Shown: positions 13,290-61,833 of the stretch, one piece after another
Layout of the letters: each line of letters begins with the position of its first letter
How positions within the stretch are numbered: position 1 is the first letter of the stretch
Origin: Eledone cirrhosa
Taxonomy: Eukaryota
DNA length: 64,000 nucleotides
Direction of reading: 5' to 3'
NCBI GenBank assembly: GCA_964016885.1
Contig: OZ024743.1
Location: 62,248,001 to 62,312,000, forward strand
The notes under the pieces: model-generated
Database searches by the model: none
Seen by the model: only the letters and a program-made list of their open reading frames with translations
Told to the model about the DNA's origin: nothing
Translations under genes and position numbers: made by a program

Positions 13290-13725
13290 TTTCGTTTCTG
13301 AATTTGTTTAGCAAGATTCTTTATCTGAAAATGTGTGTTGAAATCGATATTGTTATACTTTGGGAGGGTCATGTTGCCAATAAGAAACACACGCACCAGC
13401 TGCTTTCACTTCAATTTATTATAATAAATTTATAAATTTAGGGATTTATAAATTTCCGGTTGGTTGGTTGGTTCCAGAACCAGATGATTGTTTATATATT
13501 GTCAAAGTTCTTTTGTCACACATTCTGTGACCTCTTCAGTGACTGGGGATTCTTTTCTTTGTTTTTGTGCCTCTCCTTTGTTCTGTCCTACGCCATCTTG
13601 TTTTTGTGTGACGAAAGAACTTTATAAATCCCTAAATTTATAAATTTATTATAATAAATTGAAGTGAAAGCAACTGGTGCCTGTGTTTCTTATTGGCAAC
13701 ATGACCCTCCCAAAGTATAACAATA
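13290..13725 (-). mobile_element. PLE-derived fold-back cassette in (TA)n
   Basis: About 105 bp inverted arms (13348-13452 and 13620-13725), hammerhead in the loop, unique tail 13290-13347, (TA)n on both sides. Confidence 0.75.
13501..13543 (-). ncRNA. minimal type I hammerhead (GAAA decayed to AAAA)
   Basis: GUCA-CUGAAGA-G-GUCACA gaa UGUGUGAC-AAAA-GAACUU-UGAC; the partial copy at 13605-13622 retains GACGAAAGAAC. Confidence 0.65.
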
Positions 13726-15404
13726 TATATATATATATATATATATATATGTATATATATATATATATATATATATATATATATATATATATATATAGAG
13801 AGAGAGAGAGAGAGAGAGAGAGAGAGAGACAATTATATATACATATATGTGTGTATGTATATTTATATGTACACATATATGTATGAAGATGGGTGTGTGT
13901 GTGTGTATTCGAAATTAAAGTTTTTTCTGATATGTCCCACGGGTAAAAATATAGGTTTAAGGTTTGTTTACAATAAATTATGACTTTACCGGTTTCAGAA
14001 GTTTCATGATTTTCAATAGTCATGAGAGATGGGGAAATGTGTAACCATGCTGTCTATATATATATATAGGAAAATAGTCAGGACCCCGACGGCTGAGCTC
14101 CGGCCGTTTCGACAGCATATTCGGATCTAGCTGTCGAAACGGTGTGTTAGTTTAGTTATTAGATGACCTTTGAAGAGATTTTTTTAAAGAAATAGTCAGA
14201 AAGTGACCCTCCTCCTTCAACTAACTTACTCTCTGCCTCTGGGCCTCGACCGACAGGCTGGAGAATACATTGCCCGGAGGACGGCGAGGCAGACGCGCTG
14301 GAACAGCTACTCCACCTCCCGGGAGTTAATAAACCGTAAAATCAAATATGTCGATGTATATTTGAATCATTCTTCTGTCACGAAAGAAATTCTTATTTCT
14401 AGTTCATATCTTATCTTTGCTTAATTAAAGTTGCGTGTCACAATTTTGTAGAGAATAAATTTCGTTATATTAAATTAATTATGCTGCAAGAGGAAATATA
14501 TAGTTTTGCATGTCAAAAATATAGTGTTTCTCTTTTCATGCATTAGATACAATAACACATCACACTCTCTCAGAAAACCGCTCAGAGGCCAGTATTTCTT
14601 CCAGTATTTCTTCCAGTTATTAATGGTTTCTGATTTAGGCACAAAGCCAGCAATTTGGGGGAGGGGAAAGTGCATTACTGGTGCTTTCTTTTATCAACCC
14701 CGTAAGGATGAAAGGCAAAGCTAACCTCGGTGGGATTTGAACTCAGGGCGTAAAGGGCCGTAACTCTATGCCACAAAGCATGTTGTCCGACTTTCTAACG
14801 ATTCTGCCAATTCACCACACTCTTTCTTCCAATAATTAATTGTTTCTTCTTTTGGCACAAGGCCACCAATTATCTCAGTACATTACTGGTGCTTTATTTT
14901 ATTGACCCCATAAGGATGAAAGACAAAGTTAACCTCGGCGGGATTTGAACTCAGACCATAAAGGGCCGTAACTCTTTGCTATAAAGCATGGCATCAGAAC
15001 CTCTAATGATACTGCCAATACATAATAATAAAGGCAGAAAAAATCAATATGATCAATAAGTTTTTAGTGAATGGTAATAATTTTAGCGTCTCCCATCAAG
15101 TGAATAGCCGTTTATTTCAATACAGTCTAAAGTACATATTGTTGATGATGATGATGATGTGTTTGTTTTCCCCTATGTCAGCCCAGATAGTGTAAGCTTA
15201 TCATTAAAAGCTTTCCAGCTATGACCCTCCGGTTTTTTTTTTGGGGGGGGGGGTCTTTTTTGTCTTTTTTTTGTCTTTTATTGCTTGTTTTTTTTTTGTA
15301 TATCCAAGACTACATTCTACTTTGTCCTTTTTTATTTAAAGAATGTGACTTAAGAGGGATTGACTCCTGTTTCTAGTCAATCAAGTAACCGTATACAGTC
15401 TCTC

Positions 15405-15688
15405 TCTCTATATATCTATATATATCTATCTATCTAAGGCGGGTAAAATTCCCGAGATCCATGGACGAGTTCTCTCCAGCGGTCTCTGTCCCTCATTATC
15501 GCTGCCATATCCTGCATCTCCAACAGACCAGTGTCTGTCCTTAGGGCATCAACATATGTTAACCTTGGTCTTCCTCTTCTAGTGTGTCCATGTAGGGGCT
15601 CCCAAAGGAGCACTGAGTGCAATGTCAACTCTGGATGTCGGTGAGCATGTCCAGCCAACCTCAGTCTCCTCTGTGTCACTTTTGACAT
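15405..15688 (-). mobile_element. RTE LINE 3' fragment, same family as 23891-24247
   Basis: KVTQRRLRLAGHAHRHPELTLHSVLLWEP..RDRWRELVHGSREFYPP* followed by a (TAGA)-like tail. Confidence 0.88.
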
Positions 15689-15711
15689 ATATATATATAT
15701 ATATATATATA

Positions 15712-16215
15712 TTAGAAAAGGGAAGTAAGGATTCTATACAAAACAGTGGATATAGAGAAAAGGTGAAGTTGGAAATAGCACGGAAAATATATTTAAGGGT
15801 CTGTTTTTCTTTTTTGATTCGTCAAAGTGACATTATTGAAAAGATAACATTATTGAAAAAATGAGAGGAACAATTCTTTTTTAAAAAAAGTTATATAATG
15901 TATATAAAGTGTATGAAGAATTATCCGTTTCGATGTATTATTAAAATCCATCTTATCAAATGTTGAGTGTTGAAATAAAAATTAAAAAGAATTAATAACT
16001 CCAAACATTTGATTTTAATTTTAAATCCTTAGTTTTAAACTCCTATTAATTCGAAACGGATAAGTCTTCATACACTTTATATACATTATAAAACTTTTTT
16101 TTAAAAATAATTGTTTCTCTCATCTTTTCAATAATGTCACTTTGACGAAACAAAAAAGAAAAACAGACTCTTAAATATATTTTCCGTGCTATTTCCAACT
16201 TCACCTTTTCTCTCT
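15712..16215 (-). mobile_element. PLE-derived fold-back cassette in (TA)n
   Basis: Arms about 15752-15933 and 16050-16215 meet at TCGAAACGGATAA; degenerate hammerhead on minus strand (UUGAUAA-GAUG/CAUC-GAAAC); tail 15712-15751. Confidence 0.7.
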
Positions 16216-16416
16216 CTCTCTCTCTCTCTATATATATATATATATATATATATCTGCATGTGATGGCTGACCTGTCCAAAATCTATTATTGTATTTCATC
16301 ATATGTCTCTCTGTATATCAATACAATATAAATACCTACACTTCTATCATATATCAATACAAATAGTTACACTTCTATCAAATAACTACAATTCTATAAT
16401 TTCTATCTTTTTATAG

Positions 16417-16526
16417 AACACAATACTATATGACATATCGAGAGACGTTTCAGCCTCGCTATCGAACCAAATACAAATGCTGTCATGGTTGGACGCAGCG
16501 CAATACAGAAAAAGGATGTTTATTCC
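16417..16526 (+). CDS. MEGF6: MEGF6-like gene, exon encoding C-terminal half of EMI domain
   Basis: tttatAG acceptor, GTAAGT donor; joins previous exon in frame (AA+A=K): KTQYYMTYRETFQPRYRTKYKCCHGWTQRNTEKGCLF with the EMI CC.GW motif; ends phase 1. Confidence 0.93.
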
Positions 16527-59840: not shown

Positions 59841-60019
59841 TAAAGTTTATCCCGGGTTCAATCGGGGGTAACCACAGTAAGTAAGGTACTCAATACATAG
59901 CAGAGTATAAATATTTAATATAGAAATAGCTTCTACAGGAGTAGAACTGTTTCATTTGGGCTTCCTGATGATTTCTCTCCAGTGAAACAGTTCTAGTCCT
60001 GTAGAAGCCATTTCTATAT
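59841..60019 (-). mobile_element. fold-back cassette, same family as 55909-56107
   Basis: Tail 59841-59917 is a reverse homolog of 56035-56107; arms 59918-59954 and 59983-60019. Confidence 0.75.
59959..60009 (+). ncRNA. type I hammerhead, same family as 55926-55974
   Basis: GGCUUC-CUGAUGA-...-GAA-ACAG/CUGU-A-GAAGCC; stem I covaries with the 55.9 kb copy (GAUUC/GAAUC); stem II is weak. Confidence 0.72.
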
Positions 60020-60043
60020 ATATATATATATATATATATATAT

Positions 60044-60248
60044 ATAGGAACGAGTAGGACCCCGGCGGCTGAGCTCAAGCCGTTTCGACGGCTAATTCTG
60101 GACGGCTAATATCCAGAATTAGCCGTCGAAACGGCTTGAGCTCAGCCGTCGGGGTCCTACTCGTTCCTATTACCCACTCTACTACCCTAAGTATTGAGTA
60201 CTTTGGTGCGTTATGGTCCATCTGGTTCCTTACCACATTTCCTTCGTT
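60044..60248 (+). mobile_element. fold-back cassette, GGACCCCGACGGC family
   Basis: Near-perfect palindrome 60044-60170 containing GAAACGGCU..AGCCGUC (3' half of a hammerhead); tail 60171-60248; (TA)n flanks. Confidence 0.78.
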
Positions 60249-61417
60249 ATATATATATATATACACCGAGAAATTTAGTTTTGTTTTTGATATTTCTTGC
60301 TAAAATATATGTCTATGGCATATGTGAAGTTTCGTGGCTTAATGATGAACGTGCTGGAGTCTTTAGTCCTTCATAAAATTACTTAGATCTTATACCAACG
60401 ATACCAAGAGGTGTTATGTCTGCCTCAGTGATTTAGGATCTTACAAGGTTTGTCCTTAGTGAATAACTATTTGAACTCTAAGAACGAAATTTTTAAAGGA
60501 TGTCTACATCCTAGAGGCCAACTCCTTGCTAAGTGGAAACACTCAATGAATTCACCTAACCTTCAAACACTTTAACATAAATTTCTATACTTTCTAAATA
60601 ACACTTACATAATACGGTACACATGCTATACTACTCAACGTTAACACTTAAATGAAATAAAAATCTCTATATTACATACCACTACATAACATTATACATC
60701 TGCTGTATTGAGTACACACCACCACAATTTGATACAAATGTCTGTACATTATGGCAGTATCGGTAGAGAGTCGGACGCCATGCTTTGACGCATAGTTACG
60801 GCCCTTGCCATTCTGAGTTCAAATCCCGCCGAGGTTAACTTTGCCTTTCATCCTTACGGGGTCGATAAAATAAAGTACCAGTGATGCACTGGGTAATTAC
60901 TGGCCTTGTGCCAAAAGTAGAAACAATTATTATTACAATACCGAACAACAGACATAAATATACATTTCAATTTTACATCTTGAGTTATTTCCCTTTGCTT
61001 AACTTAATTGTAATTGTGGCGGCGTTCACCCGGGGTGCGTTGAGTCGGACCCATCGAAATAATTCACGGTGTAAGTTCCTTTCAGTGGAGTTTCTTCGGC
61101 CGATTAGTTTCACAAGCGGTGCCCAGCTGCAAGTATATGCACTTTGGGATAGTGCAATCCAAGCATTGCATAGCGCCGACCTCTTGCTTTCACATCCAAC
61201 CCAATTTGATGGAGCCAGTGTCGTGACAGGGAAATTTGAGAGGGAGTTTGGCCGGCAGAGGTGATAAACGCAACCTATTTGAGTCACTTTGTAGGTCAGC
61301 AGGAGCTAAACCCACTGCCCAGTTCAGGCATACCTTTGCTATAGAACGTAAATAATCAAATATTTCATAAAGGAGAGTTAACATGCTATAATTTTAACGG
61401 TATATTCAAACTCGTCC

Positions 61418-61518
61418 AAGCACCTGATGACTAGGTCACGAATTTGATCGCTCCTCCGTTCATTTTGCACTCCTGTGCACAATCTGGAGAGATGGCCGTG
61501 AAACCTTAGGTAGCGCTT
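61418..61518 (+). ncRNA. type I hammerhead with extended stem II
   Basis: AAGCAC-CUGAUGA-(about 70 nt)-GAA-ACC uua GGU-A-GCGCUU. Confidence 0.7.
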
Positions 61519-61725
61519 TTTGTACTGCGTATGAACATTAATAAATGATTAATAAATGATATATATCAGCTCTCACCGCAGATTAAGCAGTTTTCCTTTT
61601 TCCTATCCACCTACACACACATACACACACACACACACTCACACACACACATACACACACACATTCACACACACATATATAAATATATATATATATTATT
61701 TATTTATGTTCATTCACGGAACACG

Positions 61726-61833
61726 AAGCGCTACCTATGGTTTCAAGGTCCAATTATGATCATCTTCCCAGATTGTGCACGTTGGTGCAGAGTGGAAGAG
61801 CGATCAAATTTGTGACCTACTCATCAAGCGCTT
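61726..61833 (-). ncRNA. diverged hammerhead copy (UUGAUGA core), inverted relative to 61418-61518
   Basis: AAGCGC-UUGAUGA-..AGGUC/GACCU..-GAA-ACC aua GGU-A-GCGCUU. Confidence 0.65.

Follow-up and report, generated by a model that had tools for sequence, protein, structure and literature searches.

The DNA analysed here, a stretch of 64,000 nucleotides from Eledone cirrhosa (contig OZ024743.1, positions 62,248,001 to 62,312,000; below, the window), contains ten short elements built of two inverted arms, and raises the question of what these hairpins are and how their arms came to lie head to head. The first-pass annotation had taken them for a miniaturised output of Penelope-like elements (PLEs), in which several unrelated families share one layout. 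Self-BLAST after masking of simple repeats returned inverted arms at 13351-13722, 14104-14142, 15759-16208, 20830-22909, 52563-52665, 52760-52909, 54493-54555, 55909-56034, 58545-58618, 59923-60014 and 60047-60167. They sit in TA-bounded segments with one-sided tails of ~46 to 146 nt, the miniature at 14069 being without a tail and without a second TA tract. The layout was borne out: in each of the ten miniatures two short PLE ends stand head to head, flanked by (TA)n, and a 2.2-kb element that carries a GIY-YIG frame shares it. More than one family is present, but the miniatures at 60047, 54385, 14069 and 52564 are related to one another, as are those at 55910 and 59839. The features are listed below, with the strand where one applies.

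13291-13722: family F miniature with a Neptune-like parent (self-BLAST, folds)
13610-13291, minus strand: its tailed arm; tail ~13291-13350, core CTGAAGA at 13539, GAAA damaged
13617-13722, plus strand: its tail-less arm, without CUGA
14069-14142: partial family A-like miniature; a tail-less arm whose apex falls within stem II of the hammerhead; core missing
15713-16228: old family E miniature; arms 76% alike, 46-nt tail at the left, U3-A8 core halves on the tailed arm
20831-23055: family H element of 2.2 kb with Hydra-type motifs; a long tail-less and a short tailed copy
~22404-20831, minus strand: its long, tail-less copy
22366-22909, plus strand: its short, tailed copy; tail 22910-23055
21379-22404, minus strand: 3' part of a PLE frame (RT end, CxCx5C linker, GIY-YIG), broken near its end
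22711-22718, plus strand: family H TATA box, 28-32 nt upstream of the 5'-end pile-up at ~22739-22745, mirrored in the other arm
22747-22863, plus strand: predicted type I hammerhead of family H; its stem II is long and its stem III palindromic; the core lies at 22750, and another copy at 20989 on the minus strand
52564-52747: family G miniature, related to A; the apex falls within stem II, the core is missing and the tail lies at the right
52760-52979: family C miniature; arms 52760-52829 and 52837-52909, both beginning 5-6 nt ahead of CTGAAGA, both hammerheads damaged; tail 52910-52971
54385-54571: family A subfamily miniature, reversed; tail at the left, no core
55910-56106: family B miniature; tail ~56035-56100; tailed arm begins at the core, tail-less arm at the putative +1 with a complete hammerhead (55969-)
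58546-58791: family D miniature; arms of ~40 nt, starting 3' of the hammerhead of this family; the tail is long
59839-60014: family B subfamily miniature, reversed; the tail-less arm 59962-60014 is the longer arm and has a complete hammerhead (59965+)
60047-60247: family A miniature; arms 60047-60103 and 60112-60167, which stop within stem II, at the 5' pile-up of the family, on either side of a templated insert; no core; 80-nt tail 60168-60247

The elements had been described as ribozyme hairpins, most of them with a hammerhead core on or close to the apex. With a relaxed type I descriptor the window gave nine matches, compared with an average of 1.0 and a maximum of 5 over 100 local dinucleotide shuffles. 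Six of the nine lie in PLE ends (20989-, 22750+, 24679+, 55969-, 59690-, 59965+), the match at 12579+ is a U3-A8 motif of a different family, and two look like chance; the earlier count of about 15 motifs in 64 kb is fair once damaged motifs seen by eye are added. A strict descriptor found no PLE hammerhead, its single match in the window being at chance level, since it allowed neither U-U pairing at the foot of stem II nor a palindromic stem III. The Rfam scan of the window returned 103 matches up to E 1, none of them a hammerhead, and these were microsatellite-driven microRNA matches below gathering scores; minimum-energy folds did not reproduce most of the hammerhead folds. A type I core with GAAA, UH and stems I-III is present in long copies of families A, B, C and H. 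Among the ten miniatures the motif is complete in two (55910, 59839) and damaged in three (13291 and 52760, with GAAA changed on the tailed arm, and 15713, a U3-A8 form with decayed stem III), and the CUGA half is missing from five (14069, 52564, 54385, 58546, 60047), so that the statement about most of them was not confirmed. Nor is the ribozyme supported as the defining feature, as the core is missing in half of the miniatures and the inner ends avoid the cleavage site. An origin of the inner ends at the predicted ribozyme cut was rejected, only 9 of 597 arms ending within 3 nt of it.

PLE parentage is supported for families A, C, F and H, long copies of which continue into GIY-YIG frames; for B, D, E and G no coding parent was found in the sampled loci, and long family B copies run into ~1.7 kb of TA/TG-rich simple sequence. 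In family F the GIY-YIG frame lies upstream in 13 of 17 long copies. Full frames with RT and C-terminal GIY-YIG in a single ORF were recovered at loci L073 and L074, and an upstream pLTR plus tail stands directly 5' of the frame in L073, L075 and L076, where inverted partners are also present. The frame at 21379-22404 is 93% identical to the natural full-length frame of L073, and the GIY-YIG domain of the 2.2-kb element matched PF01541 with E 0.004, weaker than the Pfam cut-off. By alignment reading, families H and J have a single frame of 775-780 aa with RWK/RWS (RWS replacing RWK in family H), DKT, CxCx5C, CxxC and CxH, and the family A endonuclease has the same cysteine motifs. Judged by these motifs, the short single frame and (TA)n insertion, families H and J fit the Hydra clade (PMC8557442; Hydra-1_Obim in supplementary File S1), which they resemble in frame motifs, (TA)n targets and hammerheads, a likeness by motif description drawn from excerpts of that paper. 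The family F parent, by contrast, is Neptune-like and of another type (YVDD, Cx4CxxC linker), and falls outside the Hydra clade motif set. A search on RT grouping returned 664 relatives, none informatively named among the 120 listed.

The pairing of the arms was analysed in a sample of 597, of which 360 were tailed and 237 tail-less. Within each family their outer ends fall at two constant positions, either the end of the tail or the tail-less site, and the (TA)n preference was confirmed, with TA beyond the outer end in 323/360 tailed and 204/237 tail-less arms (family H, 70/71 and 33/35; family A, 143/151 and 96/109). Close pairs comprised one arm of each kind in 180 cases, two tailed arms in 3 and two tail-less arms in none; in loci fetched for another family the corresponding numbers were 40, 1 and 0. 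A close tail-less partner was found for only 180 of the 360 tailed arms, 118 being solo, and the elements that look symmetric do so in part because stem III contains TA runs. Recurrent variants of a tailed arm were found in its own partner in 171 of 217 cases in family A (56 expected), 65 of 76 in family B (16 expected), 31 of 32 in family H (7.5 expected) and 3 of 5 in family C (1.3 expected). Diagnostic columns showed zero mismatch in 120 of 141 own pairs compared with 21-26% of random pairs; 4 of 82 family A pairs differ at two such columns. Gene conversion from one arm to the other, or a single donor that supplied two RNAs, could also account for the shared variants.

From these sequence patterns we consider it likely that each hairpin forms anew at its insertion, from two reverse transcripts made separately on uncut RNA of a single parent, which tend to run off at the capped start and are joined head to head. 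The shared variants would be accounted for directly if a single reverse transcript folded back, or an antisense RNA primed itself as proposed in PMC3846280, so that the second arm was copied from the first; microhomology overlap at 86 of 180 junctions, and apices that in some cases lie in stem II or in the stem III palindrome, fit such an origin as well. It is nevertheless improbable. Although 125 of the 180 pairs have arms within 15 nt of each other, the tail-less arm is the longer in 40 and the tailed arm in 15, and at 20831-23055 the tail-less arm exceeds its partner by ~1 kb. A longer tail-less arm counts against the fold-back of one strand, the term used in the first-pass annotation, since a tail-less first strand cannot template the tail. 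Furthermore, at some junctions the two arms each carry an extra G and are separated by a centre of 1 nt, too tight for a priming loop, and the solo copies that abut TA stop at the same site as the paired arms.

Inner-end positions were interpreted for families A, B, C, F and H, the other references containing microsatellites or fold-backs. Within windows of 7-11 nt, chosen after the data had been seen, lay 158/260 inner 5' ends of family A, 68/169 of B, 40/106 of H and 15/62 of C. In family C this pile-up was weak and no TATA was found at -30, and in family F there was no pile-up near the hammerhead. Of the long copies, 5 of 7 in family B have TATAAA at -30/-32, and 13 of 13 in family H have it at -32/-33; in family A, 12 of 13 have TATT(C/T)A(T/A) at -29/-31, the box being non-canonical in most A copies. 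The miniatures are without a TATA box. The base before +1 in long copies is T or C (9/9 each), and short copies often have an extra G there. Counted by hand at positions picked post hoc, with allowed bases that vary by position, the extra G was present in 13/13 solo copies versus 1/12 at control positions (Fisher P 3e-6), and G made up 22 of 25 non-templated bases among the first 50 listed of 1,217 family B junctions; a broad automated test gave 45/135 versus 18/77 (P 0.16). The extra, non-templated G likely represents a copy of the cap, resembling the cap-derived untemplated G at the full-length 5' end of L1 insertions (PMC9341517).

If two cDNAs were made as proposed, their fixed inner end might instead reflect stalling of the RT at RNA structure, or a cut in the RNA. 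In B, C and H the pile-up falls at the border of hammerhead stem I, and in A within stem II, as stalling might give, and the missing TATA of family C and the non-significant broad test point the same way. What makes this distinctly improbable is that the offset from the ribozyme varies, at about -5 for families B and H and +43 for family A, whereas the TATA-like box lies ~30 nt upstream in all three; the extra G is, moreover, specific to +1/+2, and the predicted cleavage site is not enriched.

With two run-off cDNAs as the preferred reading, a TATA/initiator promoter in the pLTR would start a capped RNA just before or inside the hammerhead, giving a leader in the order cap, part of the hammerhead, tail. 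The RT-GIY-YIG protein, probably as a dimer on a conserved tail hairpin, would nick both (TA)n strands. With TA microhomology as an aid, one strand would serve as primer at the end of the tail, the other at the tail-less site. Each cDNA would end on reaching the cap or before it, often with the cap copied as one more base, and the two ends would be joined by microhomology, by blunt joining or by template jumping with short inserts. Starting from the downstream tail, the same reaction would yield kilobase palindromes such as the 2.2-kb element; copy lengths form a continuum up to full frames. The miniatures, without a TATA box of their own, are probably dead ends. More tentatively, and short of calling it probable, we suggest that PLE integration may be obligatorily two-primed, a dimer on one uncut capped RNA using two staggered sites, one per subunit. 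Its commonest product here would be two strong-stop-like cDNAs integrated as a pair; such hairpins would number of the order of 10^5 and derive from dozens of families. The promoter would be placed so that the leader ribozyme is incomplete (without the core in A, without the distal stem I strand in H) and the 3' copy whole, a positional cleavage switch.

L1 twin priming, in which two target-primed cDNAs meet head to head, and retroviral strong-stop DNA, a short run-off copy of the RNA 5' end, offer partial parallels. Twin priming, however, inverts without duplicating, whereas in these hairpins one stretch would be copied by both cDNAs, and the product of run-off, unlike strong-stop DNA, would itself be integrated. 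Closer is the PLE protein PAc (Poseidon, Anolis), which in vitro nicks and extends both strands from two internal starts that bound the tail, on uncut RNA, without need of ribozyme cleavage and as a predicted dimer (PMC11167929). In excerpts of that paper, one start of each kind per insertion, joining of the cDNAs and run-off at the cap are absent. The start site being the same on both strands in that system (PMC11167929) counts against our model, as does the internal, TATA-less promoter of D. virilis Penelope (PMC2377424); a rotifer pLTR has TATA plus an Inr-like motif (PMC3846280).

The head-to-head architecture is already published. The EN+ PLE insertion unit consists of a pLTR, an adjoining inverted 5'-truncated copy and a one-sided tail of 30-40 bp (PMC8557442, PMC3846280), and the elements described here share with it the head-to-head truncated copies, the one-sided tail, the microsatellite target and the hammerhead in the pLTR. 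They differ in their tails of ~46-165 nt and in that most insertions measure 100-500 bp. The predicted hammerheads are of type I with palindromic stem III and a U3-A8 variant, like the minimal metazoan PLE hammerheads of PMC4209133, where Schistosoma pairs on opposite strands, 100-700 bp apart, recall the pairs found here; unlike those, half of the miniatures have only the 3' half of the motif. Literature searches, which covered papers in excerpt, returned neither the tailed/tail-less coupling nor the stop at a capped start, and neither the extra G nor the fixed inner end.

Very high abundance was confirmed by exact pattern search of the genome, in which the tail 24-mer of one family had 32,919 matches; the tail pattern of 58546 matched in the window only, its relatives being found through BLAST in fetched loci. 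As the first-pass annotation held, these are not MITEs: a MITE or other DNA transposon was ruled out by the one-sided tail beyond the repeat and the non-uniform centre, with 167 distinct apices in 180 pairs, no apex occurring more than three times among 87 family A pairs and a few others recurring. Non-LTR retrozymes, which are defined by head-to-tail tandem units that all bear a complete type I hammerhead (bioRxiv 10.64898/2026.07.22.740005), were likewise rejected, the units being head to head, dispersed and often without a core, and tandem head-to-tail units not being seen. Self-propagating, non-autonomous miniatures copied as whole hairpins (retrozyme-, SINE- or MITE-like), for which high copy number, fixed outer ends, the few recurrent apices and published non-autonomous PLEs and PLE-derived retrozymes (PMC8557442; bioRxiv 10.64898/2026.07.22.740005) might speak, are the least probable of the readings weighed, given the diversity of apices, the asymmetric ends, the length continuum to full frames, the lack of tandem arrays and of a TATA box, and no ADAR-type A-to-G excess on either arm.

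Of the earlier suggestion that the elements target or generate (TA)n, the first part is favoured. A target site duplication cannot be read inside (TA)n, and empty sites are few: a homologue was found for 11 of 263 elements, most of these being junctions between other PLE ends, and the ~4 informative empty-site-like homologues already hold TA-rich tracts.

The origin of PLE inverted repeats and one-sided tails is stated to be unresolved in PMC8557442. The copies give quantitative rules for it (each insertion with one start at the tail end and one at the tail-less site, a single donor, a stop at the cap, no ribozyme cut), which can be tested with the existing in vitro system (PMC11167929), and they would also locate PLE promoters where RNA has not been sequenced. 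As to annotation, such hairpins, numbering tens of thousands per family, can be misfiled as MITEs or microRNA-like hairpins. Finally, some miniatures in the window at least flank a likely exon, and those so placed may be candidates for intronic double-stranded RNA.

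The fold-back layout proposed in the first-pass annotation was confirmed, with inverted arms in place in every element listed there. The ten short (TA)n-bounded elements of the window (minis) are head-to-head pairs of Penelope-like (PLE) ends; families of such ends, in the window and elsewhere in the genome, are lettered A to H and J. The genome measures 3.0 Gb and the window holds 68 (TA)n tracts of at least 10 nt. A relaxed descriptor detected nine type I hammerhead motifs in the window versus 1.0 in shuffles. The suggestion that most minis carry a hammerhead core was not confirmed: the motif was complete in two of ten, damaged in three and devoid of its CUGA half in five. 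Family A has as its true core a U3-A8 variant, located some 43 nt upstream of the point at which most copies end; such a variant is already described (PMC4209133).

The frame of the 2.2-kb element at 20831-23055 (family H) has many genomic relatives, some intact at 775-780 aa and displaying the Hydra-clade motifs listed in PMC8557442, the supplement of which includes an octopus Hydra family. Several intact relatives sit in kilobase head-to-head pairs with arms more than 99% alike. Long copies of families A, C and F carry an endonuclease frame upstream; the parent of family F, to which the 13291 mini belongs, differs in its linker, which is Neptune-like. In full copies, a pLTR and tail lie immediately before the frame, so that the RNA leader contains the tail. 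Family J (L074 293-8984; L075; L076; L077) is very young, with intact frames in head-to-head units of 5.7-8.7 kb whose arms are 99.8-99.9% alike; material for in vitro experiments could well be drawn from these loci.

Exact tail-motif matches in the genome numbered 32,919 for family A, 13,695 for B, 41 for one C variant and 200 for H, and reversed control motifs gave none. When 2,102 TA-bounded segments were scanned de novo, 269 proved to be tailed palindromes, which formed 65 clusters; 159 of the 269 are shorter than 300 bp. The PLE origin and high abundance initially claimed were borne out. The mini hairpins are genuine and arise in very large numbers as a by-product of several PLE families; they do not constitute a new class of element. 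Extrapolation from our enriched sample puts the genome-wide total very roughly at 10^5. This sample of 323 loci (1.88 Mb) was tail-anchored and taken in listing order, chiefly from contigs C1-C3. L001-L042, L138 and L153 (loci ranked by likeness to the query, and window duplicates) were excluded from all counts, and L073-L092 additionally from the arm census and tests derived from it. Removal of arms with neither boundary or close to a locus edge left 597 arms.

Outer ends fall at two fixed points per family, the tail end or a tail-less site, and TA follows the outer end in 323 of the 360 tailed arms and in 204 of the 237 tail-less ones. Close pairs among the 597 arms combined one tailed and one tail-less arm in 180 cases, two tailed arms in three and two tail-less arms in none; loci fetched for another family gave 40, 1 and 0, respectively. 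A further 118 tailed arms were solo. The two arms of an insertion have subfamily variants in common far more often than expected by chance. The longer arm was the tail-less one in 40 pairs and the tailed one in 15. Junctions were overlapping in 86, blunt in 18 and carried an insert in 76 of the 180 pairs, which showed 167 distinct apices. In 30 of 51 clusters the tail opens with TAT or ATA (9 in the control). The motif pair RCTCY...GAGY occurs in the tails of 24 of the 51 clusters, from unrelated families, just beyond the tail-less start; the first half alone was present in 1 of 51 control stretches. This pair folds as a hairpin in the window tails and is a candidate protein-binding signal.

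At the apex, arm 5' ends pile up within windows of 7-11 nt, chosen post hoc on data already seen: 158 of 260 arms in A, 68 of 169 in B, 40 of 106 in H (offsets displaced, as the reference copy has a gap of 2 nt) and 15 of 62 in C. Only 9 of the 597 ends coincide with the predicted hammerhead cleavage site, and family F showed no pile-up close to the ribozyme. Solo copies stop at the same position as paired arms. Upstream of the pile-up, B and H have a TATA box at a distance of 30-33 nt and A has a TATA-like box at 29-31 nt; C has none. An extra G precedes the putative +1. Hand counts of non-templated bases outside TA tracts in solo copies gave G for all six in A and all seven in B, against 1 of 12 at control positions. 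At B junctions, G made up 22 of the 25 non-templated bases in a hand count of the first 50 listed of 1,217, setting aside 1-nt gaps and seven ends bearing a templated C. A broad automated extra-G test gave no significance. In L1 work, an untemplated 5' G has been interpreted as possibly copied from the mRNA cap (PMC9341517).

Snap-back or antisense self-priming, as proposed in PMC3846280, would account for the variants shared between arms; it leaves unexplained the longer tail-less arms, the stops of solo copies and the tight junctions with a G tip on both arms. The best fit is a model in which two target-primed cDNAs would be copied from uncut RNA of one donor, each start site (tail end and tail-less site) priming one, and both would run as far as the cap, or close to it, before being joined. 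It builds on in vitro work (PMC11167929) in which a PLE protein used two internal starts to extend both strands, with no ribozyme cleavage required. Publications already cover the inverted truncated copy, the tail, the bias towards (TA)n and the pairing of hammerheads on opposite strands. For the coupling of one tailed with one tail-less arm and the stop at a capped start, we found no report in the literature searched, which comprised few subscription papers. The interest of the hairpins lies in the mechanistic rules they expose.

Other features of the window are as follows.

12535-12700 and 13923-14060: two copies of another family, with a U3-A8 hammerhead (12579, + strand), facing tail to tail and both starting at the same 5' base
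15426-15686 and 23106-23900: non-LTR reverse transcriptase fragments, presumably RTE-like, adjoining PLE insertions
24640-24715, 57870-57990, 59070-59200 and 59588-59700: further solo ends of PLE type, hammerhead intact or damaged, each with relatives in fetched loci
37857-45198: G-rich minisatellite of 7.3 kb, 26-bp unit, about 280 copies, extreme strand skew
53014-53913: 3' end of Neptune-like type, decayed, with remnants of the endonuclease at 53586-53851 (- strand) and a damaged hammerhead near 53130
58356-58479: likely exon, AG before and GT after
61417-61546 and 61698-61834: 73% inverted repeat, hammerhead-like core halves facing across (CA)n/(TA)n

Between the two U3-A8 copies are the 13291 mini and a fragment resembling a LINE. 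The likely exon, whose product we take from its pattern to be a calcium-binding EGF-like module, makes the neighbouring minis probably intronic. The 73% repeat is arranged tail to tail, unlike the minis.
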